The notes under the pieces are model-generated. The model was not told the origin of the DNA. It made no database searches and saw only the letters and a program-made list of their open reading frames with translations. A stretch of 64,000 bases of DNA from a virus (lineage: Duplodnaviria; Caudoviricetes). Each line of letters begins with the position of its first letter. Within the stretch, counting starts at the first letter, position 1. Of the stretch, positions 4,274-44,869 are shown in pieces. The stretch covers positions 6,699 through 70,698 of IMG/VR virus record IMGVR_UViG_3300029959_000009; one strand, 5' to 3'. A program made the translations under genes and the position numbers.

Positions 4274-5047
4274 ATGGAATTATTCGATCCAATAAAAAGA
4301 AGTGAGGAAGTTGAGGCAATCGTCATGAAGGGGCCAGCGCGCGCCTACTATCGCTTTAGGTTCGCGCGCTTCTATGGTGGTATAATTACAGCAGACGCAA
4401 TAGGCTGCAATCTCCTTTGCGCATATTGCTGGAGCTTCCAAAAGAACTTGAGTCCAGAAGGCCAGGGAGAATTTTATCGCCCCTCTGAAGTGGCTCTTAA
4501 GCTTCGCAAGCTGTCGCGCTCTAATGACTGCGATCAATACAGAATATCAGGAAGCGAGCCTTTCCTAGGAGAGGCAAGCGCGAAACATATAGAAAGAATT
4601 ATAAATGTGGTGGGAGGAAGCTGGGTAATCGAGACCAATGGGCTTATCATTGGTTATCAGCCTAAGATATTGGATTTATTCAAGAATCTGGATATTTTCT
4701 GGAGAGTGACCATAAAAGGCCATAATAAGGAGATCTTCGAGAAGGTCACAGGGGCGAAAGGGGAGTTTTTCAAGTATCCTCTTCAAGCCATCGATGAGCT
4801 GAAAGCCAGGGGTTTAAGGCTGCAAGTGGCCTATAATCCTGAGTTTGTACGTCTTAACCTGCCAAGGATAGACGTAGAGCATGAGAAGCTGCACACCTAT
4901 TCTGGAGTGGCTGCAAGGATGAAAGCTAGAGGCTTAAGGGGAGGCGATAAGCCAGAAAAGGCAGAAGGCAGAAGGGAGAGGCCCAAAAGGGCCCCTAGAC
5001 AAACTGCCTTGAACTGTGATGAGGGTATGTATCAGGATCTAACCTGA
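4274..5047 (+). CDS. Radical SAM protein (archaeal COG5014-like)
   Basis: RFYGGIITADAIGCNLLCAYCW contains CxxxCxxC; also SGSEP (GGEP-like) and IETNG motifs. Confidence 0.85.
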   Translation: MELFDPIKRSEEVEAIVMKGPARAYYRFRFARFYGGIITADAIGCNLLCAYCWSFQKNLSPEGQGEFYRPSEVALKLRKLSRSNDCDQYRISGSEPFLGEASAKHIERIINVVGGSWVIETNGLIIGYQPKILDLFKNLDIFWRVTIKGHNKEIFEKVTGAKGEFFKYPLQAIDELKARGLRLQVAYNPEFVRLNLPRIDVEHEKLHTYSGVAARMKARGLRGGDKPEKAEGRRERPKRAPRQTALNCDEGMYQDLT

Positions 5048-6390: not shown

Positions 6391-7092
6391 TTATTCGGGG
6401 TCTTCCCACTGTCTGCTTGAGGGGTTCCAATAGGTGTATTTTCTCTCTGGGTGATGTGGGCAAAATCCGAAATGTCCTATAGAGAAATTGCAGTTCATGC
6501 AGAGGATACGATACTCTTTTTTTAATTCCTCGGGCCACCCCAGTCTGTTAAACTCTTTTAGTAAAGAGTTCCCGGATTTGGCCCTAGGAGATCGTCTATA
6601 ATCATTGCCGTGCCCATTTATATGATCTATCGAGAGAAATTCGCGCGTTGATTCTCCACAGCAAGCACATGGCCCGAAAAATTCCAACGCACTCTCCCAA
6701 AGATGATCTAAATATTTCTTAAATCTTTTTGAGTATTTTTCTGGACACGCCTTCCGGTCCTTTTTGGCAAATTCTGAGACGTGGCGAGAGATGTCCTTCG
6801 GCTTTGAGTAATAATAATCCATCGCGTGCTTTATGTTACAGTCTTTGCATATCGCATGTAGCCCCAGCCGTTTATTTCGTTCGCATTTATGGAACTCGCC
6901 CAGGGGTTTTTCTTCGCCGCATCTACTACAGCGCTTCGTTTCTGGCAAAACTTCCAACCGACGAACTCTTAATGACTCGTAATAGCATTCATTGGAACAG
7001 AATTTGCGGCCTCGATTGGCTACTGAATAATAAGTCTCAACTTCTTTACCACATGTCTTACATTGAAATTTTATGGTTCGTGATGGTTTCAC
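6391..7092 (-). CDS. HNH homing endonuclease with N-terminal zinc fingers
   Basis: CACCGE..LSIDHING...ILCMNCN catalytic region; several CxxC pairs. Confidence 0.8.
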   Translation of the reverse strand: MKPSRTIKFQCKTCGKEVETYYSVANRGRKFCSNECYYESLRVRRLEVLPETKRCSRCGEEKPLGEFHKCERNKRLGLHAICKDCNIKHAMDYYYSKPKDISRHVSEFAKKDRKACPEKYSKRFKKYLDHLWESALEFFGPCACCGESTREFLSIDHINGHGNDYRRSPRAKSGNSLLKEFNRLGWPEELKKEYRILCMNCNFSIGHFGFCPHHPERKYTYWNPSSRQWEDPE

Positions 7093-19700: not shown

Positions 19701-20438
19701 TTACGATTCCTGTTCAATCCGAGGAGCAAGTAAATACTCCACCAGCACGCCCTTCGCAATCTCGATCACAAGCCTCATCGGATAGTTGTTCCCAATCTCC
19801 AGATGGACGCTCGGAGCCTTCCCGGCCGCCTTCGCCATATCCTCTAAATAGTCCAGGGAGAACAAAGAATGCGCCTGCCCGTGCCTGCCGCCGAGCATCA
19901 GCGACAGCTCGCGCTCGAACCGCACCGAGTCTATGTCGCCCTTTGCGCCCGCTATGAACTTCGCGTCGTCCATGCCGAAGGCGATGTGGTCGCTGACCTT
20001 CTTGGCCGCCTTGATGATGTGCTTGAACTCGAATCCTGCCATATCCACCCAGACGGGCAGATCAACCTCAGGAACGACAGGCGGCTTGCGAAGTGCCGTT
20101 ATGTCGATCAGCGAGAGCTTATACGACAGCCCGCCCATGCCGACCAGGAGCTTCATGTTCTCCTCGTCGAGCTGCAGGGCGACCGCCTCATCGTCCTTCG
20201 CCATCGCCAGGGCATCCTCCAGCCGCACGAGATCCACCCCGATAGAGCCGGGGGTAGTCTTGAAGAACTCGAACGACGACGCGGCCATCTTCAAACAGAC
20301 CATGCAGATGTTCGCCGCGTCTACGGACTTGACCTCAAGACCCGTATCAGAGACCTCGATTTTACACTCCTCGACGAGGCTCGATATGGACTCAATGGCG
20401 TTCTTGAGGATCTTTGCGTTAATGACCACCTTAAACAT
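19701..20438 (-). CDS. pcn: DNA polymerase sliding clamp PCNA
   Basis: 245 aa; VDAANICMV, IGVDL..L, FSLDYL and YLLAPRIE motifs. Confidence 0.95.
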   Translation of the reverse strand: MFKVVINAKILKNAIESISSLVEECKIEVSDTGLEVKSVDAANICMVCLKMAASSFEFFKTTPGSIGVDLVRLEDALAMAKDDEAVALQLDEENMKLLVGMGGLSYKLSLIDITALRKPPVVPEVDLPVWVDMAGFEFKHIIKAAKKVSDHIAFGMDDAKFIAGAKGDIDSVRFERELSLMLGGRHGQAHSLFSLDYLEDMAKAAGKAPSVHLEIGNNYPMRLVIEIAKGVLVEYLLAPRIEQES

Positions 20439-27069: not shown

Positions 27070-27274
27070 ACACCTTTTTGGGGTGCGATATGGATTTCAA
27101 AGAGTTGCGGATGCGGCGCAAGATTATCTACGTGTCCGAGAAATTAACTCGCAGGAGCGGAGAGGACGGAGCGAGAAGTCCCCGGACTTCAGGCCGTGGG
27201 ATGAAAGCGGAGTCCTCCCTTTTTCTTACATGATCACCGATAACTATTTAAGGCAATAATGGGATACACTTATT

Positions 27275-27694
27275 TTGGTAAAACCTATGAAGTATAAGCT
27301 CGATAGATCTGCTCATTCCGTGTATTCTCTCCATTATCATTTGGTGGTAGTGGTGAAATACCGGAGGAAAGCACTCTATGATGAGGTGATTAGGGAGCGC
27401 CTGAAGCAGATCATATGGAGTTTGACGGATGATCTTGGAATAGAAATACTTGCACAAGAGCCTGCTGAAGATCATCTTCATGTGTTGTTCAAGGCCACGC
27501 CTAAAACCAATCTGGTCAACATTGTGAACGTCATCAAAGGCGTAACTGCTAGAAGGCTTAGACAGGAATTTCCACAGACCAAAGCGTTTCTTTGGGGAGA
27601 TTCTTTCTGGTCCGACTCCTATTTCATAGCCTCAACAGGGCAGGTTAGCATTGATATCCTGATGCAGTATGTAGAATCTCAGATGGAGAAGTAA
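27275..27694 (+). CDS. tnpA: IS200/IS605 Y1 HUH transposase
   Basis: YHLVVVVKYR, DHLHVL (HUH), IKGVTAR, WSDSYF. Confidence 0.95.
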   Translation: MVKPMKYKLDRSAHSVYSLHYHLVVVVKYRRKALYDEVIRERLKQIIWSLTDDLGIEILAQEPAEDHLHVLFKATPKTNLVNIVNVIKGVTARRLRQEFPQTKAFLWGDSFWSDSYFIASTGQVSIDILMQYVESQMEK

Positions 27695-28881
27695 TGACTA
27701 TCAGCTACAAGTATCCGATATTCCCAGATAAAGCGACTCAGCAAAAGTTAGCTGAAGCTCTGGATGCTTGTAGATGGCTTCATAACCGACTTCTTCAAGA
27801 GCTGAACGAAGCTAGGGAGAAAGGTATCAAACTCAAAACCTATGACACCCAGAACATGATACCCTCTCTGAAGCTTGAGAATCCCAAACTGAATCTGGTC
27901 TATTCCAAAGTTCTTCAGATGGTCAACTACACTCTCTGGTCTAACATCAAAGGTCTCTCGGCTTCTAAGAAGAATGGCCGAAAGGTAGGTCATGTCAGAT
28001 TCAAAGGTTATGGCTGGTATAAGACCATGAACTACAACCAGTCTGGATTCAAACTGGATCAAGATCACGGCAGATTGCATCTATCCAAGATAGGCGACAT
28101 CAGGATCAAAATGCATCGCAAGATCCAAGGATGCATCAAAGCAATCCTAATCAAGAGAGAAGGCAGGCAATGGTTTGCTATTGTTCAAGCCGATCAAGAT
28201 CCAGAGCCATTGCCAGAAACTGGTAATTCAATCGGGTTAGATGTCGGCCTGAAGTCCTTTGTTGTAGATACTGGTGGCAATTCTGTAGAGAATCCGAGAT
28301 TTGCTGAGAAATCTGCTGATAAGTTAGCTAAGGCTCAGAAACGATTGGCCAGAGCCGAACAGGGATCTAACAACCGCCGAAAGATCAAAGAGCAGATAGA
28401 GACGATCCATAAGAGGATCAACAACCAGAGAGATGATTTCCTCCATAAACTTTCAAGGCTCTATGTCAATAACTACGATAATATCTGCATAGAAGATCTA
28501 GATGTCAAAGGTCTGAAAGAAAAAGGCCACAACAAAGGAAAGCATCGTAGTATCCATGATGCGTCCTGGGCCAAATTTGCGTTCATGCTTTCGTACAAGG
28601 CTGAAAGTGCTGGTCGAAGGCTGATCAAGGTCGATCCAAGGAACACAACTCAGAGGTGTTCCAATTGTGGAAGTATTGTTCCAAAAGATGAATCTGTCAG
28701 AGTTCATGAGTGTCCTTACTGTGGGTTCTCATGTGACCGTGACTATAACGCTTCCATAAATATACTCATCGCAGGGATGGAACAGCCCGTAGCGCCCATA
28801 GAGTCAAAACCTCTACATCGCATATCTGTGATGCAAGTTTTGGCGATGAAGTGGGAAGCCCTACCCTTTAGGGTAGGGTAG
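27694..28881 (+). CDS. tnpB: RNA-guided endonuclease TnpB
   Basis: RuvC motifs IGLDVG, IEDL and DRDYNAS; CxxC/CPxCG zinc finger. Confidence 0.95.
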   Translation: MTISYKYPIFPDKATQQKLAEALDACRWLHNRLLQELNEAREKGIKLKTYDTQNMIPSLKLENPKLNLVYSKVLQMVNYTLWSNIKGLSASKKNGRKVGHVRFKGYGWYKTMNYNQSGFKLDQDHGRLHLSKIGDIRIKMHRKIQGCIKAILIKREGRQWFAIVQADQDPEPLPETGNSIGLDVGLKSFVVDTGGNSVENPRFAEKSADKLAKAQKRLARAEQGSNNRRKIKEQIETIHKRINNQRDDFLHKLSRLYVNNYDNICIEDLDVKGLKEKGHNKGKHRSIHDASWAKFAFMLSYKAESAGRRLIKVDPRNTTQRCSNCGSIVPKDESVRVHECPYCGFSCDRDYNASINILIAGMEQPVAPIESKPLHRISVMQVLAMKWEALPFRVG

Positions 28882-29166
28882 TTCACTTGTGGACGTGTTG
28901 CGTGGTCTGGGAGACGTCGAGACGATCTCCTTGCCGATGGTAAAACCTCCCGAAGAGGGCAGCATCGTCGTTAGGGTGTGGCCGGATTACACGCGCCACG
29001 CTTTTGCTGTCGAGATGGTTAATGAGAACTGGCCGGTAGTGCTCGATGGCTGTAGATGTCCTGAAGGGGATGCTGAAGTTGTAAGGCGGTTCTTCTATGT
29101 CGATGCAGAGAACCCCTCGGTGCTGAAGACAGTCGAAAGATAGCCAAAGCTAGGAGTGGTAGAGAA

Positions 29167-29422: not shown

Positions 29423-30874
29423 TTAAGTCGGCGGCGGGTTAATCAGCACGTCGCCGGGGTCAAGCCTACTATCGCTCTCGACCGTTATTTTATCCCCCAG
29501 CGCCGCTATCGTCGTCGCCCCATCGGTCGCCGATAGCGCTGTGATCTCGTCTATCCCGTAGAACCTGTCGCCCCATTCTCCATCTCCAAGATATTGAATG
29601 CGGGCCGCGTCGTACAGGTCCGAGAACTGCAGCTCCTCGCCTATCATGAAGTCGTCCAGGAAGGCCTCTATCGAAGCCTGTATGAGGTCGTCCAGGTCAC
29701 TCTCGGGCGTCGCCGTGGCAACGTAGGTCATCACCACATCGATAGTAACCTTCTCCGGGAGCAGGAACAACAGCGGCGGCGCGCCGTACCCTATCAGCAC
29801 ATCGTACTCGAACGCCCCTGCGTAGGTATCCACCGGCACAGAAGCAACATCAGTATCCCCTTCAGCCAGCGCAACCTCGACATACTGCCCCTCGACCGTC
29901 CCGGCTGGAACGGAAGCCGTGGCCTCGTGGGTCGCCCCTTCCGGCGTCACGTAGTCGAACGTGAACTCGTCGAGCGCCGTCACGCTCACCCTGGCCCTGA
30001 GCCAGATCTGGCCGCCTGCAGCATCCCCCAGGTCGCCGGTGTTGGCGTCTGCCTCCAGATGGGCCGCCAGCATCCCCCGGCCGCATACGCCTGCCGAGAT
30101 GCACTCCTCGATGGCATCCCCGACCAGGCCTATGTTGGTCTCGGTGGGCGTGGTATCGACGATGATCTCTGCGTCTCCCCGGCCCTTGTTGTAGACTTTT
30201 GCCTCCCTCACAATCTTGGAGCCGCTGGACTCGACCGCCTCCAGCCACTCTTTCATAGTCGGGACTGTCGCCCGGCCGTACTCTGTCGCTGTCGCTATGT
30301 ACCTCTGCCGCAGGTCGTCGTCGCTCTCCTCGTCTGCCCCGCCTGTGAACGTGAGCGGGTTTGTGACGTAATCCACGCCGGAGAGGCCGCCAGAGACGGC
30401 GACTATTGCGGCTGCCCGGACGTTCCCCCTGGCCCCTGCCTCGGAGGCTTCGACGTATGCGGATATCGAAGTCTGGCCGGCGAGCAGCGTAACCGCTGCG
30501 ATGGTGACGAAGTAGACTGGTCCCTCGCCGTCCGTGTCCTGGGCACTTACTTCTGTGCCTGCGGGAATCGGGATGTCGGCGCTGGCAGCCGTCGTGCGGA
30601 TAAAGTTGATCTGGCCTGTGGCCTTGGTTCCCGTGAGCCTCGTTAGGCCCCGGTCCTTCGCCAGGTCGTCGAGGTCTGCCCCTGTGGCGGTGAGGACGTT
30701 CTGGGCCTCGGCAGCGTTCTCGATCTTTACCTCTAGTCCCTGGACGACTTTAGCGAACGGGATTGTAGTCTTGCGGAGCATCGAATGCAGAGACCAATCG
30801 CAGAGGCTCGGATTCTCCGCTATTGTATCGGCTTCTATAGTAGCAAGAATTTGTTCAACTGTGCGAACGGCCAT
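29423..30874 (-). CDS. Baseplate J-like wedge protein
   Basis: ATGADLDDLA...RLTGTKATG, A.EAGARGN, FTGGADEESDDDLRQR. Confidence 0.9.
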   Translation of the reverse strand: MAVRTVEQILATIEADTIAENPSLCDWSLHSMLRKTTIPFAKVVQGLEVKIENAAEAQNVLTATGADLDDLAKDRGLTRLTGTKATGQINFIRTTAASADIPIPAGTEVSAQDTDGEGPVYFVTIAAVTLLAGQTSISAYVEASEAGARGNVRAAAIVAVSGGLSGVDYVTNPLTFTGGADEESDDDLRQRYIATATEYGRATVPTMKEWLEAVESSGSKIVREAKVYNKGRGDAEIIVDTTPTETNIGLVGDAIEECISAGVCGRGMLAAHLEADANTGDLGDAAGGQIWLRARVSVTALDEFTFDYVTPEGATHEATASVPAGTVEGQYVEVALAEGDTDVASVPVDTYAGAFEYDVLIGYGAPPLLFLLPEKVTIDVVMTYVATATPESDLDDLIQASIEAFLDDFMIGEELQFSDLYDAARIQYLGDGEWGDRFYGIDEITALSATDGATTIAALGDKITVESDSRLDPGDVLINPPPT

Positions 30875-34850: not shown

Positions 34851-34985
34851 ATGGCATTAAAGCGTTACACATGTTTGCGGTGTGGTAAAGAGTGGATACC
34901 GCGAAAGGATGGAAAGCCCCGAACCTGCCCCAACCCGAAATGCAGGTCGGTCTATTGGGATGTGCCCCGGAGAGAGAAAGAATGA
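34851..34985 (+). CDS. Zn-ribbon microprotein (44 aa)
   Basis: CLRCGKEWIPRK...CPNPKCRSVYW; ATGA overlap with the endonuclease gene. Confidence 0.6.
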   Translation: MALKRYTCLRCGKEWIPRKDGKPRTCPNPKCRSVYWDVPRREKE

Positions 34986-35818
34986 GGAAAGGCAGCCACC
35001 TATCAGAGGAACATAAAGCGAAATTATCTAAAGCTAATATGGGAAAGCACCCATCACCCGAAACCCGCGCAAAGATGTCGAAGTCGCGCAGTGGGGAGAG
35101 GCATTACTTGTATGGAAAGCATCTATCGCCTGAAGTAAAAGCCAAGATATCTAAGACAGAACGAGGGAAGATCATTCCTGAAGATGTGCGCCTCAAGATG
35201 TCCGAGTCCCACAAAGGCGCTAGAAACTGTAATTTTGGGAGAGAGTTTAGCGAGGAGCATCGCGCCAAAATATCACAAGCAAGAAGAGGCCGACGCGCCC
35301 CTCCAGAGACCCGCGCAAAGATGGCTGCCTCGCAAAGCGGTCGTCGGCACTCCCCGGAGACGCGTGCCAAAATGTCTGCTTGGCAAATAGGGAGGAAATT
35401 GCCCCCCGAAACGGTCGCTAAGGTCGTAGCTACAAACGTTCGCCTCGGAACCCGCGCGGGTGAGAGGAATGGCAGGTGGAGAGGGGGCGTATCATTCGGC
35501 CCATATTGCCCAAAGTTCAACTTTGAATTTAAAGAACGTGTGCGGGAGTTCTTTGGTCGCAAATGCTTGATTTGTGATAAAACGGAGGCAGACAATGGCA
35601 GAAAGCTCGACGTGCATCACGTTGCTTATGACAAAATGATTTGTTGCAATGATAAAAAACCTTTGTTTGCTGCCCTTTGCACATCACACAATTCAATCGC
35701 CAACAATGGCCGAGATGGTTGGGAGCATATGTTTACATACATCATCGAGGAGGTATATAAAGGCAAATCGTTCTACTCGAAAGAGGAGATGTCTGCATTA
35801 AAATGTAACAAAAATTAA
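34982..35818 (+). CDS. NUMOD3-repeat HNH homing endonuclease
   Basis: About eight H-S-(E/P)E-x-R/K-A-K-M/I-S repeats followed by CLICD...LDVHH...ALC; opposite strand to the virion operon. Confidence 0.85.
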   Translation: MRKGSHLSEEHKAKLSKANMGKHPSPETRAKMSKSRSGERHYLYGKHLSPEVKAKISKTERGKIIPEDVRLKMSESHKGARNCNFGREFSEEHRAKISQARRGRRAPPETRAKMAASQSGRRHSPETRAKMSAWQIGRKLPPETVAKVVATNVRLGTRAGERNGRWRGGVSFGPYCPKFNFEFKERVREFFGRKCLICDKTEADNGRKLDVHHVAYDKMICCNDKKPLFAALCTSHNSIANNGRDGWEHMFTYIIEEVYKGKSFYSKEEMSALKCNKN

Positions 35819-35826
35819 TATATATC

Positions 35827-36258
35827 CTATACTATATTATTGTCGTTGCACTCAACAAGAGTAACGTCCCACTCGATTGCAAACGTCTGCATACCCGTCC
35901 TCGGCACTCTGCGGAGCTTGCTTTCGATATACATCAGGAGCGGAGAGGATCTCAGGAGGTGGCACTGGACCTCATGCGGCGCGTAGTTGTCGAGGGCGTC
36001 CATGGTCTCTTTGTCGTCTTTGGTGAACGTCGTAACAACGAAATGCAAGACCTTCAGGGCGACGGGTTCCGTGGCTTGGGTGATGGTCATATAGCCAGGA
36101 ACGGGCTGCCTTACGACCTCGAAGCGTTCCGTGATTTCAAGGACATTGGGCATCGGCAAGCAATCCTCCTCCCAAGTGCCCTCCTCGGCGCTACTCGACC
36201 TATTGAACTCAATGCCGTCAATAGCAAATGGAATAATATCATCTTGATATTCGACCAT
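35827..36258 (-). CDS. Tail-associated protein following the tape measure (possible tube initiator); contains the array's gapped match
   Basis: GGTG RBS before ATG 36258; myovirus gene order TMP-X-hub. Confidence 0.6.
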   Translation of the reverse strand: MVEYQDDIIPFAIDGIEFNRSSSAEEGTWEEDCLPMPNVLEITERFEVVRQPVPGYMTITQATEPVALKVLHFVVTTFTKDDKETMDALDNYAPHEVQCHLLRSSPLLMYIESKLRRVPRTGMQTFAIEWDVTLVECNDNNIV

Positions 36259-36297
36259 AACACCGTCCAAGAAAAAAATAAACTTGCCTCTTGTAAT

Positions 36298-36600
36298 TCA
36301 GATCGCGCTTAAGATATCATCCAACTTTTGACTCAGCTTTTGAGGATCTTCTATAAGCTCGTACCCCAATCTATAGATCCGCCAACCCTCATTCTTTAAG
36401 ATCTTGTCTCGAAACCGATCACGCCTCTTATTGCTACTGCCATCATGGCATGGGCCATCGGCTTCGATAACAATCCCGCCTTCAATCACAATATCCAAGA
36501 CGAACCCCGAAGGAGTTGGGTGTTGAGCTAAAAACTCAACATCTCGCGCCTTCAAGGCATCCATCACCACTTTCTCAAGCGATGTTGGTTTGTAATCCAT
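36298..36600 (-). CDS. DUF559/Vsr-like endonuclease
   Basis: TSLEK..., LDIV...VIEADG..H...RDRFRD..L...GWRIYR. Confidence 0.85.
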   Translation of the reverse strand: MDYKPTSLEKVVMDALKARDVEFLAQHPTPSGFVLDIVIEGGIVIEADGPCHDGSSNKRRDRFRDKILKNEGWRIYRLGYELIEDPQKLSQKLDDILSAI

Positions 36601-36700
36601 ACACTACCACGCAACACTTCACATAGCACGGCATCACAGTGCAACTCATCACAAGACAAGGCCGAACAGGGCCATACAGGGCGCGACAGCGCATCGCCTC
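36601..36700 (-). ncRNA. Pentamer array, 20 x NN-(T/G)GY; putative gapped guide RNA
   Basis: gaggc gatgc gctgt cgcgc cctgt atggc cctgt tcggc cttgt cttgt gatga gttgc actgt gatgc cgtgc tatgt gaagt gttgc gtggt agtgt. G at position 4 in 20/20 units, Y at position 5 in 19/20, TGY 13, GGY 4. Confidence 0.85.
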
Positions 36701-37394
36701 GTTTAAACCGCTCCTACTAAGGAGCAGGCTTTACCTCATCGACCTTTGTAACGGCAAATCTCCCATAGGGGCCACCGCGTTCAGGCCGGAAATCTCCAAG
36801 TCCTATCCTAGTGCCTGCATAGCTTAAGATTTCTTCGACTATCGAACCCCCATGATTGACATCCAAAAATACTGGATCTATCACTTTAATTTGGAATTCG
36901 CATGCCCACGCATCGAACCTCGGGCGGGCCTTCAGAACTCGTGCCCTATTGATTACAACAGGCCGAAGGTCCACAACCCAATTGCCTATCAGCAATGGCT
37001 CCTCGGGCACCGTCTCTAGGCCACTCATGACGAGGTCTTTAAAGGTCTTCTTGCCTTTACCGCCCACTCTGAAATTTGTAGCAGCTCGGCGCATCGATGC
37101 TAGGAGGTTCATACCAGGCATCACGACTTCGCCCTCGGCGTTCAAATATAGGCCCATCTGAGCTTCTTCTTCCGGGGTCCACTTAGGGGCGTTCTTGCCA
37201 CGCTTTTGGCTTTCTATCATCTCCCTTGTACTATGCATCAACAGGGGCTTTATACCTTCGATTTTAACTCGCAGGAGCGGAGAGGACGGAGCGAGAAGTC
37301 CCCGGACTTCAGGCCGTGGGATGAAAGCGGAGTCCTCCCTTTTTCTTACATGATCACCGATAACTATTTAAGGCAATAATGGGATACACTTATT

Positions 37395-37814
37395 TTGGTA
37401 AAACCTATGAAGTATAAGCTCGATAGATCTGCTCATTCCGTGTATTCTCTCCATTATCATTTGGTGGTAGTGGTGAAATACCGGAGGAAAGCACTCTATG
37501 ATGAGGTGATTAGGGAGCGCCTGAAGCAGATCATATGGAGTTTGACGGATGATCTTGGAATAGAAATACTTGCACAAGAGCCTGCTGAAGATCATCTTCA
37601 TGTGTTGTTCAAGGCCACGCCTAAAACCAATCTGGTCAACATTGTGAACGTCATCAAAGGCGTAACTGCTAGAAGGCTTAGACAGGAATTTCCACAGACC
37701 AAAGCGTTTCTTTGGGGAGATTCTTTCTGGTCCGACTCCTATTTCATAGCCTCAACAGGGCAGGTTAGCATTGATATCCTGATGCAGTATGTAGAATCTC
37801 AGATGGAGAAGTAA
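37395..37814 (+). CDS. tnpA: IS200/IS605 Y1 transposase
   Basis: Translation identical to 27275-27694. Confidence 0.95.
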   Translation: MVKPMKYKLDRSAHSVYSLHYHLVVVVKYRRKALYDEVIRERLKQIIWSLTDDLGIEILAQEPAEDHLHVLFKATPKTNLVNIVNVIKGVTARRLRQEFPQTKAFLWGDSFWSDSYFIASTGQVSIDILMQYVESQMEK

Positions 37815-39001
37815 TGACTATCAGCTACAAGTATCCGATATTCCCAGATAAAGCGACTCAGCAAAAGTTAGCTGAAGCTCTGGATGCTTGTAGATGGCTT
37901 CATAACCGACTTCTTCAAGAGCTGAACGAAGCTAGGGAGAAAGGTATCAAACTCAAAACCTATGACACCCAGAACATGATACCCTCTCTGAAGCTTGAGA
38001 ATCCCAAACTGAATCTGGTCTATTCCAAAGTTCTTCAGATGGTCAACTACACTCTCTGGTCTAACATCAAAGGTCTCTCGGCTTCTAAGAAGAATGGCCG
38101 AAAGGTAGGTCATGTCAGATTCAAAGGTTATGGCTGGTATAAGACCATGAACTACAACCAGTCTGGATTCAAACTGGATCAAGATCACGGCAGATTGCAT
38201 CTATCCAAGATAGGCGACATCAGGATCAAAATGCATCGCAAGATCCAAGGATGCATCAAAGCAATCCTAATCAAGAGAGAAGGCAGGCAATGGTTTGCTA
38301 TTGTTCAAGCCGATCAAGATCCAGAGCCATTGCCAGAAACTGGTAATTCAATCGGGTTAGATGTCGGCCTGAAGTCCTTTGTTGTAGATACTGGTGGCAA
38401 TTCTGTAGAGAATCCGAGATTTGCTGAGAAATCTGCTGATAAGTTAGCTAAGGCTCAGAAACGATTGGCCAGAGCCGAACAGGGATCTAACAACCGCCGA
38501 AAGATCAAAGAGCAGATAGAGACGATCCATAAGAGGATCAACAACCAGAGAGATGATTTCCTCCATAAACTTTCAAGGCTCTATGTCAATAACTACGATA
38601 ATATCTGCATAGAAGATCTAGATGTCAAAGGTCTGAAAGAAAAAGGCCACAACAAAGGAAAGCATCGTAGTATCCATGATGCGTCCTGGGCCAAATTTGC
38701 GTTCATGCTTTCGTACAAGGCTGAAAGTGCTGGTCGAAGGCTGATCAAGGTCGATCCAAGGAACACAACTCAGAGGTGTTCCAATTGTGGAAGTATTGTT
38801 CCAAAAGATGAATCTGTCAGAGTTCATGAGTGTCCTTACTGTGGGTTCTCATGTGACCGTGACTATAACGCTTCCATAAATATACTCATCGCAGGGATGG
38901 AACAGCCCGTAGCGCCCATAGAGTCAAAACCTCTACATCGCATATCTGTGATGCAAGTTTTGGCGATGAAGTGGGAAGCCCTACCCTTTAGGGTAGGGTA
39001 G
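37814..39001 (+). CDS. tnpB: RNA-guided endonuclease TnpB
   Basis: Translation identical to 27694-28881. Confidence 0.95.
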   Translation: MTISYKYPIFPDKATQQKLAEALDACRWLHNRLLQELNEAREKGIKLKTYDTQNMIPSLKLENPKLNLVYSKVLQMVNYTLWSNIKGLSASKKNGRKVGHVRFKGYGWYKTMNYNQSGFKLDQDHGRLHLSKIGDIRIKMHRKIQGCIKAILIKREGRQWFAIVQADQDPEPLPETGNSIGLDVGLKSFVVDTGGNSVENPRFAEKSADKLAKAQKRLARAEQGSNNRRKIKEQIETIHKRINNQRDDFLHKLSRLYVNNYDNICIEDLDVKGLKEKGHNKGKHRSIHDASWAKFAFMLSYKAESAGRRLIKVDPRNTTQRCSNCGSIVPKDESVRVHECPYCGFSCDRDYNASINILIAGMEQPVAPIESKPLHRISVMQVLAMKWEALPFRVG

Positions 39002-39060
39002 TTCACCCTCGAAGGTTTTCATCAACGGTTCGGGCTTAAACTCCATCAGTTCTCACCGAT

Positions 39061-39135: not shown

Positions 39136-39151
39136 TGCCGTAATGCTTATT

Positions 39152-39310
39152 ATGGCGCGAACGACCTTAACTTTATCCGATCCGATCATGCGCACTCTAA
39201 GAACCCACGCAGCCCGGACGAAGAACAGCTCCAAAGCCCAAAGCGAAGTTGTTGAGGAGGCTCTAAAGGAGTATTTCGAGAGATACCACATTCAGATAGA
39301 AGCTTCGTAA
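39152..39310 (+). CDS. Ribbon-helix-helix (CopG-like) regulator (52 aa)
   Basis: MARTTLTLSDPIMRTLR...QSEVVEEALKEYF. Confidence 0.75.
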   Translation: MARTTLTLSDPIMRTLRTHAARTKNSSKAQSEVVEEALKEYFERYHIQIEAS

Positions 39311-39328: not shown

Positions 39329-41764
39329 TCAAGCGATATAGGCTCTGTTGGCCCTACCCACGGCGGCCTCGACCTTGCTCTTGAACTCAAAGCTACTCAG
39401 CTCCTTCTCAAGACCCTCCCGGATCTGTCTGGCTATGCTGTAGCCGTCTGCCCCTCCGGTCGGTGCTACGTGAATATCGCCGATCTGGACAGTAATATTG
39501 CCTCCGCCAGACCCGCCCGCTGCTATGTCTTTGAGGCTGTTTATCAGAACAGAGGACCTCGCCACTTCAGCCGGAACGATGGGCTCGCCCTCGTCAACCC
39601 AGGCGAGGCCGGAGCGCTGGACCTCTCCACCGACTGCATTTTTATTCCTGAAAATGTAGTCGTAGGCCATCCGGCCGTACAGCTGCAGGCCGCCCTCCAC
39701 ATCAGCCGACCCCTTGATTTGGTCGGATGGCTTGGTGCGGATATCCAGGCCGCCCGGCCCCTTGATATCGTTGGTGTATGCAGGATTGTAGAATGGGTTT
39801 CCAGAGGCCGCGCCCAACGGCGAAACGTCTTTATCTCCGGCGTTGGGGTTTGCCAGCTTGTTTCGCAGGGCATCAACCATGTCGTTATACTTCTTTTCGT
39901 TAGCTCCTTCTGGCCTCATGGGCTTGCCCGTTTGGGCTTCCTCGATGGCTGCTAAAATGGTGGCGTTGCCGAAGTCGTACTTATCTCGGCCTTTGCTATC
40001 GTCGAGGCTCTTGACCCAATCGACCAGCTTCCATTTTGCGTCCTCTGTGAGCGGCTTCTGCCCGCCGCCAGTGAACTTATCGACGATCTGCTTGAGGTAC
40101 TCGTATATTTTCACCAGCGGGGCGAGCTTATCGACGATTGCCCCATGGATATCTCTGAGCCAGTTAGTGAACCCGTCCCAGAGGTCTTTCATCTTCTGCA
40201 GCACGTACAGAATCATATCCTGTACGCGCTTGGAGGGTAAAAGAGCCTCGGCGAAGCCTGCCACAAGGCCCATGGGAGAGAGCTTGATAGCCAGCCCGAT
40301 GCCGCCTTTCAGAGCGCCCCCGATGTCGCCGGACTTCCACAGCTTGTAGAGGGCGTCTACCTGGTCGAACAGGCCCGCCACGTAACCGGATACTGTTTCG
40401 ATGGCCTTGCCAACGCCGCTGAAGTAATCCCCCTCTCCGAGAATCCCGAATGAGGCGAGCAGGCTGTTAAGCCCGTTGATCAGGTCTTTGCCGATCTCGC
40501 TTTTGGCGAAGTGGTCCCACGCCTTGCTGAAGACCTGGAACCTGGACTCCAGCGAGGAGAGGACGACTGCCAGGGCGACAATAGCGACGATTGCGAGCCC
40601 GATGGGGTTCGCCAGCAAAGATGCTGTGAGGGCCGTGATGCCGCCCGTGACCAGGCCGAGGATCGTCGGGAGGACTGCAAAGGCTGTGCCCAGGCCCAGG
40701 ACCACGGCAATCAGGGCCGGAACCTCAGGAACCAGTGCAAGGAGCTTTACAACCGCCGTCGTAAATCCCATTATGATGGTCGCCGCTGGCCTGATGGCGT
40801 TGCCTATCCCCTCGTTCAGCTTCTCGAACGACCTGGTAAGATCCCTCATGCCGACGCGGTAGCTGTCGGTGTCGGGCTCAACCTGCTCCCCGATCCTCTC
40901 CAGTGCTTTTGAGGCCAGACGGCGGCGGGCCTCGGCCTCGACTACCTCATCGGATTGATAGGCAAAACTCTTCTCGCGCTGGACCTTCAGCTTCTCGGTC
41001 TGCAGCGTCCCGGCCTTGAAGAACTCGGGCATCTTGCTCTTCACGATGCGCCCGATATCCGAGTTCTCGTCCAGGGGGTTCGAGAGTGTCTGCAGGAGGC
41101 CTTTCTCGTCGGTTATCCCGAAGCCTGCCAGCGATTGCCCGAACGTCGAGGACATGATGCGCTCGGCGTTCTTGATATTCTTCTGGATCACGGACTGATC
41201 GCGGTAGCCCGTCATTGCCATATATCCGGCGAGGTTGCCCCTGGTGAGCGAAGACGTGCCGAAGCCCTGATCGCCCTTCGAGATGAAGTTCAGGACACCC
41301 CCTGCCTGGCTTCCGAGCTGGTCCCTGATCATGGCGATGTTCAGCCGTTGGGCCTCTGCGACCTGAAGGGCAGACTTGGCGTAAGCGACCATCCCGGCCG
41401 CAGCTCCCGCTACGATGAGCTTGCCGGCGTCGAGCTTCTGGAAGAACGAGCCGACTGTATCCCCTGCCTTCTTCGACTGATCGGCCATAGCCCGGAGCTT
41501 ATCGTTCATCCCTCCGAGGGCCTTATCCTGCTCCTTGATGCCTTTGGTAGCCTTGGACGTGTCGATCTCACCAGCGGCTTTCGTGGCCTTCTCGACGCTC
41601 TTTATGGCCTTTTCAGCCTCTTTGGTGGCGACGGCTACGGTCATCGTGTAGCTCTTCGCCGTGAGTGCCGTGGCCTTCGCCAAGAGTCTGTCGAGGCCCT
41701 TTTCGCCGCCCTCGTCTCTAAGCAGGGTTCGGATGATGAAGTCTCTGATATTCTCTGTCGCCAC
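39329..41764 (-). CDS. Tail tape measure protein
   Basis: 811 aa, Ala/Gly/Lys-rich helical, NPIGLAIVAI hydrophobic segment, downstream of the chaperone. Confidence 0.9.
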   Translation of the reverse strand: MATENIRDFIIRTLLRDEGGEKGLDRLLAKATALTAKSYTMTVAVATKEAEKAIKSVEKATKAAGEIDTSKATKGIKEQDKALGGMNDKLRAMADQSKKAGDTVGSFFQKLDAGKLIVAGAAAGMVAYAKSALQVAEAQRLNIAMIRDQLGSQAGGVLNFISKGDQGFGTSSLTRGNLAGYMAMTGYRDQSVIQKNIKNAERIMSSTFGQSLAGFGITDEKGLLQTLSNPLDENSDIGRIVKSKMPEFFKAGTLQTEKLKVQREKSFAYQSDEVVEAEARRRLASKALERIGEQVEPDTDSYRVGMRDLTRSFEKLNEGIGNAIRPAATIIMGFTTAVVKLLALVPEVPALIAVVLGLGTAFAVLPTILGLVTGGITALTASLLANPIGLAIVAIVALAVVLSSLESRFQVFSKAWDHFAKSEIGKDLINGLNSLLASFGILGEGDYFSGVGKAIETVSGYVAGLFDQVDALYKLWKSGDIGGALKGGIGLAIKLSPMGLVAGFAEALLPSKRVQDMILYVLQKMKDLWDGFTNWLRDIHGAIVDKLAPLVKIYEYLKQIVDKFTGGGQKPLTEDAKWKLVDWVKSLDDSKGRDKYDFGNATILAAIEEAQTGKPMRPEGANEKKYNDMVDALRNKLANPNAGDKDVSPLGAASGNPFYNPAYTNDIKGPGGLDIRTKPSDQIKGSADVEGGLQLYGRMAYDYIFRNKNAVGGEVQRSGLAWVDEGEPIVPAEVARSSVLINSLKDIAAGGSGGGNITVQIGDIHVAPTGGADGYSIARQIREGLEKELSSFEFKSKVEAAVGRANRAYIA

Positions 41765-43186: not shown

Positions 43187-44869
43187 TTAGGCCCCCTGAA
43201 GCTCTGCCAGATCCGTGTAGACGCCCATCTTCATTGCTACCTCGATCCATTCGATGTGCCCCATCGGTATGAACTTCAGCAGGAAGTGTACCAGGTTGGG
43301 GTTAGTGCCGTCCGGCGTTACAACAGTCACGAAGTCATAGATCGCCTTGACCTCATCCCGCAGCTCCCGCAGGAAAGCATCAACAGAGAGCTTCATAGCC
43401 TCCCTGGTGTCTGCGTCATTCTTGCGGTTGAGGAACGGGGTCATGGTGTCCTTGCACTTGACTATGATGTAGTTGGCCGTCCTCTGGTCCACGGTTCGGG
43501 AGAACTGGTCGAGCTTGTCGGTCGTTATGCCCTTAACAGGCCCTACGCCTGCCTTGGTCTTGACCACGACGTAAATACCGCGAGTGGTCAGAGCCCGGAC
43601 ATAATCGTCGTTGATGGTGTCCTCTAAATCGCCGTGCAGGCCGTTAGCTCCCTTGAGCCGGTTCTCATCAGCAGCTACAGACTCGCCCAGAGGAGCCCAG
43701 GCCTCACGGGCGGCGTGCAGCACCGCGAGGTTCTTCCTGCGCTCGGACTCGTCCCACGCCGGGTAGACTATCGCAAGGTGTCGGTTGCTGCGCTTCATCC
43801 CCTCGATCACCATCTGCCCCGGAGTCTCGGAGGGTTTGGTCGGGACGAATACCAGCGTCGGCCTGAACTTGGTGTTCTCTGCTGTGGCCCACTGCGAAGC
43901 GATAACGTGCAGGTCGTAGGTGTTCGGCTGCACCTCGTAGGCCGTCAGGGCAACGCAGGTCGGCACAACGTCGAGCTTCTTGAGCTCGTTCGAGCACTCG
44001 TTGAGGGCCTTCGTCCAGTCGGAGGTAGCAATCGTCGAGCCGTCAGTGCCGCCAGTGAGGGGCGTTCGGACTGCTGCAGGCAGATGGGTCATGCCGGCCG
44101 CTATCTCGAAGGTCGCCAGAGATGAGGAGGCGAAGGCGTCCACGAGGTCGTCGAGATCCTTGATATCCTCCCGGTACTCGGTCGTCACGTTGTCGGTAAT
44201 GACCACATCGATGCCGTAGTACCACAGAGAGTAGACTACCTGATCGGCCGCAGTCGGGTCCTCGGCTGCATAGAACTTCAGAGCGCCGGTTACCGGGTTG
44301 AGCCAGACCTTGCCGGCTGCCAGGTTCTCCTCCAGATAGACGAGCGTCTTGGCGACTCCGTTTACCGTGACATAGGCCGCGGAAGGCTGCGGGTTGATGA
44401 AGTTGGCCTGACTGAGTGCGTATGCCCCACCGAGGCCGTTTCCTGCGAAGTAGTCTTGCTCTGCGTGAGCAATCACGCCCGCTGAGGGGGTGACAGATAC
44501 GCCGTTGCCCCATGCGCCAGGCGACTTCGCGGTTACAGTCCCTACGACATTCGGGGCGCTCTGGTTGTCCGACAGGTCGGCGTCTGCAGAAGCGTAGCCC
44601 GCGCCCAGAATCCTCTTAGCAAAGATCCTCGGAGCGCCTTCACCGAAAGCGTCCTGGATGGCCTCCATCAGGTCGCCGCTGCCGTAATAGGCTGCAGCCG
44701 CCAGGGCCGATGTCATGCCTACGAGGTCAGTCGGGCCTCTGGCCGACTCTCCCAGCAGGAGCAGGGTGTGGGCGGTCGTGGCGCTCGTGATAGGCCCCAC
44801 GGCCTCCAGGGTGATACCGATCCCTGGCAAAATGTTCTTAATTGAGTAATCGCCGTAAGTATAAACCAA
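43187..44869 (-). CDS. Tail sheath protein
   Basis: GESARGP, AFGEGAPRIFAKR, TAKSPGAWGNG, LTGGTDG and C-terminal sheath motifs. Confidence 0.9.
   Translation of the reverse strand: MVYTYGDYSIKNILPGIGITLEAVGPITSATTAHTLLLLGESARGPTDLVGMTSALAAAAYYGSGDLMEAIQDAFGEGAPRIFAKRILGAGYASADADLSDNQSAPNVVGTVTAKSPGAWGNGVSVTPSAGVIAHAEQDYFAGNGLGGAYALSQANFINPQPSAAYVTVNGVAKTLVYLEENLAAGKVWLNPVTGALKFYAAEDPTAADQVVYSLWYYGIDVVITDNVTTEYREDIKDLDDLVDAFASSSLATFEIAAGMTHLPAAVRTPLTGGTDGSTIATSDWTKALNECSNELKKLDVVPTCVALTAYEVQPNTYDLHVIASQWATAENTKFRPTLVFVPTKPSETPGQMVIEGMKRSNRHLAIVYPAWDESERRKNLAVLHAAREAWAPLGESVAADENRLKGANGLHGDLEDTINDDYVRALTTRGIYVVVKTKAGVGPVKGITTDKLDQFSRTVDQRTANYIIVKCKDTMTPFLNRKNDADTREAMKLSVDAFLRELRDEVKAIYDFVTVVTPDGTNPNLVHFLLKFIPMGHIEWIEVAMKMGVYTDLAELQGA

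Follow-up and report, generated by a model that had tools for sequence, protein, structure and literature searches.

A nuclease-bearing VIPR cassette beside the near-cognate target of its own guide in the tail module of an archaeal tailed virus

Does the RNA guide of a small viral cassette direct the nuclease encoded at its end to the gene next door? The question is raised by a 64,000-nt stretch of an archaeal tailed virus (the window; IMGVR_UViG_3300029959_000009, positions 6,699 to 70,698; all coordinates refer to the window), in which a cassette of ~1.3 kb, made up of a ribbon-helix-helix (RHH) regulator gene, the RAMP gene vipr, one guide RNA (vrRNA) of 20 pentamers and a Vsr-like nuclease gene of the DUF559 family, lies between the tape-measure gene and a conserved tail gene, here called ORF147 (ORF, open reading frame). 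An earlier note had proposed that the RAMP-RNA filament recruits or licenses the nuclease, so that the cassette spreads or excludes competitors during co-infection. We find that the guide matches a single site in ORF147 and that it matches most alleles of relatives better than the resident one. Judged from sequence, we put at about one in two the probability that the cassette acts in RNA-guided rival exclusion or homing, in which the filament would mark a rival allele, the nuclease would cut or nick it, and the rival would be excluded or converted. The cassette and its borders, beginning at the upstream border, are as follows.

39329..41764, minus strand: tape-measure protein gene (PHROG tape-measure families; C-terminus aligns with the tape-measure genes of relatives)
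39143..39310, plus strand: RHH gene, divergent from vipr (PF01402 RHH_1, E 2.5e-5, passes the cut-off)
39007..39046, minus strand: vipr 5′ fragment, codons 1-13 and the first base of codon 14
37268..39006, plus strand: IS200/IS605 element (tnpA 37395..37814, tnpB 37814..39001; Pfam Y1_Tnp, OrfB_IS605, Cas12f1-like_TNB)
36717..37267, minus strand: vipr 3′ part, RAMP, Cas7-like (PHROG phrog_4652; visible frame 36717..37241)
36710..36725, minus strand: hairpin over the vipr stop codon (6-bp stem GCUCCU/AGGAGC)
36601..36701, minus strand: vrRNA repeat tract, 20 units Y-NN-K-G and a closing T
36298..36600, minus strand: DUF559/MTES_1575 nuclease, 100 aa (Pfam cut-offs passed for both families)
35827..36258, minus strand: ORF147, conserved tail-module gene, whose homologues directly follow the tape-measure gene in relatives
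36109..36168, minus strand: near-cognate vrRNA site in resident ORF147, codons 31-50 from the ATG at 36258 (31/40, one-base skip)

VIPR (Viral Interference Programmable Repeat) was described in 2026 preprints; most such systems are viral, and their targets belong to competing elements. The vrRNA, built of YNNGG pentamers, is coated by Vipr, a small and ancestral RAMP, and in the published code the NN letters pair with double-stranded DNA with one base skipped, usually the codon wobble (bioRxiv 10.64898/2026.04.26.720920). The system comprises Vipr, vrRNA and an accessory gene (vap), with Escherichia phage SUSP1 and a Pseudomonas fulva prophage as type II exemplars; VIPR structures (10.64898/2026.04.26.720927) and a competition study (10.64898/2026.10.15.759431) are reported separately. 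By profile comparison, the cassette RAMP can be placed securely in the characterised Vipr family, and the cassette identified as a nuclease-bearing VIPR cassette: the family profile A3 matches the PDB entry 36pp_D, "SUSP1 Vipr protein", at E 1.1e-16, covering 10-186 of 189, and the AlphaFold2 (AF2) model of the homologue P0009 (predicted local distance difference test, pLDDT, 83) has Csm3/Cas7 subunits as its best structural matches. Together with the pentamers and the one-base-skip target match described below, this profile match bears out the earlier proposal that RAMP and pentamer RNA form a real guide system.

The array (36701..36602, minus strand) begins 16 nt past the vipr stop codon and runs through 20 consecutive pentamers, with G at position 5 in 20/20 units, K at position 4 in 18/20 and Y at position 1 in 19/20. 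Its scaffold is mostly TGY, a variant of GGY; non-GGY scaffolds such as TGH/NN have already been listed (bioRxiv 10.64898/2026.10.21.760802). The array ends at 36602 and is followed by a closing T at 36601 and the DUF559 ATG at 36600, so that the nuclease start abuts the last pentamer, as the earlier note had described. No second run of at least six such pentamers occurs in the 64-kb window. Tandem Repeats Finder, run on 35-38 kb, did not report the array, because only two to three letters per unit are fixed.

The 20 NN dinucleotides were read against both strands of the window with 0, 1, 2 or 3 skipped bases. With one skipped base, the best match is at 36168..36109 on the minus strand (31/40 letters, 14/20 units), in frame with ORF147 and with the wobble base as the skipped base. 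The second-best window site on either strand reaches 23/40, 200 shuffles of the unit order never rose above 27/40, and the binomial expectation of a 31/40 match across the window is 6e-7; skips of 0, 2 and 3 gave background only, save for the array matching itself. The start of the site is 432 nt away from the DUF559 ATG, in agreement with the ~430 bp claimed for a matched site downstream in the adjacent gene, and the six units said to mismatch the resident allele are units 3, 4, 8, 9, 12 and 16. Read under the published code, the guide has a single predicted address in the window, codons 31-50 of the adjacent gene.

Sixteen homologues of ORF147 come from other sequences (62-88% identity), in addition to the window's own record. 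Matches of the guide to foreign ORF147 alleles are always in frame and with a one-base skip. At the homologous site the guide agrees in 35/40 letters with L012, L020 and L021; in 34/40 with L008/9, L014, L016, L019, L022 and L106, the closest relative; in 33/40 with L006, L015 and L018; in 32/40 with L107; in 31/40 with the resident allele; in 29/40 with L024 and L109; and in 24/40 with L010 (L numbers denote related loci). Most foreign alleles are thus above, and the resident allele just below, the 80% that the preprint takes as cut-off for natural VIPR targets (bioRxiv 10.64898/2026.04.26.720920). Perfect runs span 7-9 units in foreign alleles and at most 4 in the resident allele. Furthermore, the guide corresponds to the common "DARPMP...ERYEVVR" allele type; the carrier's own allele belongs to the "DCLPMP...ERFEVVR" type.

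The cassette sits exactly between the tape-measure gene, whose stop codon is its upstream border, and the next tail gene; a T-rich spacer of 39 nt separates the DUF559 gene from ORF147. The order of tape-measure gene, ORF147 and a 396-413-aa gene is shared by L006-L011 and L107. Empty sites between tape-measure gene and target gene, for which the earlier note had suggested looking, are seen in about 12 distinct related loci (including L008/9, L010/11, L012, L015-L020, L022, L024, L107 and L109), where the tape-measure stop codon overlaps the ORF147 start or lies within a few bases of it. In such genomes, the junction and the start of the target are ~100 bp apart. A cassette at the tape-measure/ORF147 junction was found only in the window and in L006/7, and the two Vipr proteins are 48% identical.

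The nuclease profile A4 matches 3r3p_A, the catalytic domain of I-Bth0305I, at E 2.3e-10 across the whole 100 aa. Within the clade D36, E46, H52 and D61 do not vary, and in the alignment they correspond to D196, E, H213 and D222 of I-Bth0305I; the AF2 model of the nuclease has a pLDDT of 92. I-Bth0305I is the prototype of the Vsr-like EDxHD homing endonucleases, and PDB 3R3P is its catalytic domain (PMC3239194). Pfam detected no other domain in the cassette protein; its entire 100 aa aligns with the catalytic domain, with no NUMOD/helix-turn-helix (HTH) region. The alignment identifies the nuclease as a stand-alone homologue of a homing-endonuclease catalytic domain, and the comparison with homing endonucleases drawn at the outset is supported by the 3r3p match and the kept catalytic residues. 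We do not file it as a member of the EDxHD homing endonucleases, because it consists of the catalytic domain alone, without the DNA-binding region.

Far from being absent from most homologous array loci, an outcome that the earlier note had named as speaking against its proposal, the DUF559 gene directly follows vipr in 13/13 loci with a Vipr of 43% or higher identity to the query P0009. In most cases the arrays are placed between vipr and DUF559; in L031 and L105 the two genes overlap. Beside the more distant Vipr relatives, DUF559 was not found in any of the loci. Its ATG abuts or lies inside the last pentamer in 6/10 loci (window, L004, L026, L027, L029 and L030), and the others of those 10 have a spacer of 18-25 nt from array to DUF559. 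DUF559 is presumed to be the VIPR accessory (vap) nuclease.

Rival exclusion or homing would then proceed as follows. In a mixed infection, Vipr protomers would coat the vrRNA, and the filament would open the rival's allele. Lacking a DNA-binding domain of its own, DUF559 would rely on the filament for its address and would nick or cut the DNA where the filament is bound. If the rival were then repaired from the cassette-bearing genome, it would acquire the cassette together with the linked resident allele (marker exclusion or homing); a cut left unrepaired would remove the rival. Since the nuclease start codon lies in or against the last repeat unit, translation of the nuclease is probably also under the control of filament assembly or of vrRNA 3′ processing.

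Several observations weigh against this reading. The resident and foreign alleles differ by only 1-4 of 40 letters; the fit of some cassette-free alleles is poorer than that of self (L109 and L024 at 29, L010 at 24); the six self mismatches are common to other family members and are not private escape changes; and a search of IMG/VR for a perfect target, with units 5-13 as an exact pattern, found none. The earlier suggestion that the resident allele is protected by polymorphisms is supported in so far as most foreign alleles match better, but the margin is small and the self mismatches are ordinary family polymorphisms. The window and L006 share the insertion site, but their cassettes and flanks are not similar, so that no recent transfer is visible. 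Furthermore, vipr is broken by an insertion sequence (IS) in this genome, and the published VIPR activity is transcriptional silencing, with the role of nuclease accessories stated as open.

A neighbouring target was also not found for every cassette. When five cassettes (window, L003, L001, L006 and L033) were compared with cassette-free relatives of their flanks, an adjacent target was found for two of the five, the window and, more weakly, L003. The core of L003 vrRNA 1 (L003:3584-3663) has an in-frame match in cassette-free relatives, in the final 60 nt of the gene immediately upstream; this target is the 3′ end of a DnaT_2-like gene directly before the cassette (relatives L118, L120, L122 and L124, ~4478-4525). 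The best 10-unit window reaches 18/20, which 0/300 shuffles attained, and units 3-13 agree in 20/22 letters in L118 vs 17/22 in self; the whole array reaches only 22/32. The guides of L001, L006 (four arrays) and L033 gave no match in the flanks of cassette-free relatives: L001 guides reached at most 60% against four cassette-free portal relatives, and L033/L116 guides had no match at 16/20 or more against eight cassette-free relatives. Similarly, the guides of L001, L004, L006, L026, L027, L029, L030, L031 and L032 gave no 10-unit window at 18/20 in 750 kb of loci. The proposal of homing or marker exclusion thus draws support from the VIPR identity, the nuclease linkage, the homology to a homing-endonuclease domain, the empty sites and the better match of most foreign alleles, and loses some of it to the small self/foreign margin, the broken vipr and the three negative cassettes.

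These negative cassettes fit an explanation, in our view rather unlikely, in which VIPR only represses the tail gene of co-infecting relatives, without cutting. DUF559 would then act elsewhere, in non-specific degradation of silenced DNA, in vrRNA processing or in an unrelated defence task, and the adjacency of the target would be due to chance or to the need to keep a weapon against close kin linked to the resistant allele. Repression is indeed the sole activity demonstrated for VIPR, with targets that are typically genes of competing elements; three of the five cassettes lack a neighbouring target; and the linkage argument accounts for adjacency without homing. Silencing alone leaves unexplained, however, the strict linkage of the nuclease in the clade, the retention of every catalytic residue and the fact that its nearest match is a domain from a proven homing endonuclease. 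It also has to accommodate a target at most ~160 bp from the junction in a 70 kb genome, for which chance gives ~0.5%, and the second, weaker case in L003.

Alternatively, DUF559 could be an independent, free-standing homing endonuclease with a sequence preference of its own, the guide match being unused for cutting and VIPR being co-resident cargo or a means of protecting or repressing the nuclease. We consider this improbable. The isolated catalytic domain of I-Bth0305I does dimerise, and the enzyme is most specific close to where it cleaves (PMC3239194); free-standing homing genes are often housed in phage structural operons, and an HNH/NUMOD3 gene lies 9 nt beyond ORF147. The cassette nuclease, however, is only ~100 aa long and is without the NUMOD/HTH region that lets I-Bth0305I contact up to 60 bp (PMC3239194). 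Moreover, it occurs only with the Vipr of this clade, and has its start codon embedded in the vrRNA, and the cassettes occupy many unrelated junctions.

The NUMOD3/HNH homing-endonuclease gene (34892..35818, plus strand) lies between ORF147 and a 413-aa tail gene, which are adjacent in L006-L011, L107 and L106. ORF147 is thus flanked on both sides by selfish-looking insertions, the HNH gene on one side and the cassette on the other. Compared with L106 (L106:17-442), ORF147 (35827..36258) is a mosaic, with 62 differences in the first 253 nt and 8 in the last 172 nt; the identity breaks near 36004 (permutation p < 1/2000), and the next gene is 79% identical. The near-identical patch of ~170 nt abuts the HNH insertion and excludes the guide site. 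A co-conversion tract of the cassette was rejected as the source of this step, as the patch is the 3′ third of the gene, away from both the cassette and the guide site.

The state of vipr bears on whether the system is active here. At its N-terminus the visible window frame falls about 20 residues short of the homologues, and the remaining frame is without the first beta-strand that all homologues have. When 39046..39007 is joined to 37267..36717, an open frame of 196 aa results, whose N-terminus, MEFKPEPLMKTFEVKIEG..., aligns with intact homologues; vipr is thus split at codon 14 by the IS200/IS605 element (37268..39006), which is inserted after TTAA. The sequence features place the element in IS200/IS605: it encodes a Y1 transposase and TnpB and is inserted beside a short fixed motif. 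A second copy at 27148..28886, also after TTAA, is 100% identical over 1743 nt, which points to a recent insertion; the flanks of the two copies are unrelated. The TTAA in vipr is enclosed by the two arms of a 7-bp inverted repeat (CCTTCGA/TCGAAGG). Since the sequence past the right end of the IS (39007 onward) consists of vipr codons, the restored vipr would presumably be what the TnpB guide addresses. The array and the flank of the other IS copy share a 15-nt inverted match, which was rejected as being at chance level for such a length. Single-sequence queries with P0001 and P0003 against viral contigs retrieved no relatives.

The split means that the Vipr-vrRNA filament invoked in the earlier note is not expected here now, and the system is probably switched off in this genome. 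Among sequencing runs, none of RNA was listed as holding the sequence, and the cassette was found in only one DNA run, X1, probably the source sample, where the depth of the IS is ~3x that of its flanks; X2, X3 and X24 cover little beyond the IS element. No IS-free vipr joint was seen among the source-sample contigs, which drop rare variants.

That the system is a relic, dead in this lineage, with the imperfect matches reflecting drift of an old guide of no present function, is very unlikely. The split vipr, the fact that no sampled allele is perfect and the missing IS-free joint (with the same caveat on contigs) would agree with it. The complete identity of the two IS copies nevertheless argues for a recent insertion, and the cassette is otherwise intact: in the array 20/20 units keep their scaffold letters, and the nuclease and the remaining vipr are open and conserved. 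Least probable of all is self-regulation, in which the guide would bind its own ORF147 and time or damp transcription of the tail genes downstream of the cassette: the resident site does reach 31/40 in the first downstream gene of the same operon, and VIPR represses from either strand inside coding regions (bioRxiv 10.64898/2026.04.26.720920), but most foreign alleles match better than self where a regulator should match its own target best, the preprint reports no self matches at 80% or more, and other cassettes show no near-self matches.

The proposed rival exclusion or homing by the cassette has parallels in several known systems. The free-standing homing endonucleases of T-even phages (Seg, Mob) are inserted between conserved genes and cut the neighbouring gene of element-free relatives, a behaviour known as intronless homing and marker exclusion. 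The resident allele is different at the cut site, and flanking markers are carried along in the conversion. DNA recognition in those enzymes is by protein domains, whereas the address here would be an RNA guide. The TnpB and IscB proteins of IS200/IS605 elements are guide-RNA nucleases that recut the empty donor site and so retain the transposon. They resemble the cassette in being part of a selfish element with an RNA guide toward sequence beside its own insertion point. Each is, however, a single large RuvC nuclease with a contiguous guide, whereas binder and nuclease here are two separate small proteins, of a different protein family and with a different code. With I-Bth0305I, the nuclease shares a homologous catalytic domain (E 2.3e-10 over 100 aa; catalytic Asp, His and Asp kept), phage-borne location and, as predicted here, a target in the element-free allele. 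I-Bth0305I, which is encoded in a group I intron, also has an N-terminal NUMOD/HTH region (PMC3239194), whereas the free-standing cassette nuclease has no more than the catalytic domain and never occurs without an RNA-guided DNA binder.

Within VIPR, the closest likeness is to type II, in the homologous small RAMP, the pentamers with three scaffold and two variable letters, the one-base skip at the codon wobble, the viral location and the aim at a gene of related competitors. The locus differs from type II in its mostly TGY rather than GGY scaffold, in a hairpin before each array rather than a 3′ pseudoknot tail, in having a Vsr-like nuclease rather than a DNA-binding protein as accessory, in a target within the gene adjoining the cassette and in the IS-broken vipr. 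VIPR types III and V, as outlined in the available preprint text, likewise have a predicted nuclease accessory, proposed to destroy rather than repress targets; they are described there as enriched in cellular defence islands, and the nuclease named is HNH, whereas the present clade lies inside viral structural operons and uses a DUF559/EDxHD domain. The locus has a Vipr homologue, vrRNA pentamers, a one-base-skip target match and an adjacent vap gene, and it lacks an intact vipr; the break affects activity here, not membership of the VIPR family. No CRISPR-type long direct repeats with spacers were found in 26-40.5 kb, and Pfam and PHROG scans found no cas families among the neighbouring genes. 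The locus is not a class 1 CRISPR-Cas system, the sole likeness being the Cas7-like fold.

Homologous arrays sit between vipr and DUF559 in related loci, with 1-4 arrays per locus. A hairpin precedes the first array in 9/10 loci folded, with differing stem sequences (the fold window of L004 ended inside the hairpin); by eye, the window hairpin is like that ahead of the L004 array and those of later arrays in multi-array loci. The hairpin is presumed to be the 5′ handle of the vrRNA. An Rfam scan of six cassette loci matched no family and no hammerhead. L026 has ~4 arrays between vipr and DUF559; two more hairpin-plus-pentamer arrays lie downstream of DUF559 in L006 (L006:5720-5990), making four in total; and in L031 and L105, where vipr overlaps DUF559, no array lies in between. 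Array 3′ ends are typically YATGG(AT) (L001, L003, L006, L026, L029, L032 and window 36603..36595). The motif recurs ahead of each hairpin in multi-array loci, and in the window, L026 and L029 it doubles as the ATG GAT start of the nuclease gene. This recurrence suggests either that a unit containing the nuclease start was duplicated or that the arrays have a processing signal in common. Two other views of the array, as a 10-bp-periodic DNA binding site and as a TRAP-like triplet-plus-spacer RNA for translational control only, were dropped when the protein family proved to match Vipr and a target was found for the NN letters.

The RHH gene is the first gene of the cassette, is found at the same position in L006/L007 and is a likely regulator. 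The source record is 70.7 kb long and estimated to be 67% complete. Its genes for PCNA (19701..20438), tail sheath (43187..44869, a weak match) and baseplate J (29423..30874) indicate an archaeal myovirus-like virus, and a related contig is binned in a Methanothrix metagenome-assembled genome (GCA_041664085.1). The carrier is an archaeal tailed virus, with relatives binned with Methanothrix.

Cassettes of this clade are found at differing structural-module junctions, beside portal, capsid, minor capsid and baseplate J genes. A tentative generalisation, which we hold with less confidence than the reading of the window itself, is that DUF559-type VIPR cassettes are RNA-programmed homing elements in which the protein DNA-binding module has been swapped for a Vipr-vrRNA filament, with at least one guide per cassette aimed at the insertion-flanking gene of cassette-free relatives. 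A cut would copy the cassette and the linked resistant allele into rivals. Changed NN letters would re-aim the element, which may be why so many different junctions in viral structural operons are occupied.

The locus offers a concrete case for a nuclease-bearing VIPR, with a natural guide, target alleles graded from 24 to 35 of 40 and natural empty sites. What is new here, as the alignments indicate, is a VIPR nuclease that is a bare I-Bth0305I-type catalytic domain and a constant partner of vipr in the clade: its nearest solved relative is a homing endonuclease, and the DNA-binding part has been lost in the cassette protein. If the guide does not direct the nuclease, the locus would still represent VIPR between close archaeal viruses, used against a core tail gene as a weapon kept beside a less well matched allele. 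If the guide does direct the nuclease, this would be the first RNA-guided homing endonuclease made of two small proteins (Vipr homologues of ~176-216 aa and a nuclease of ~100 aa), and it would link the fields of homing endonucleases and RNA-guided systems.

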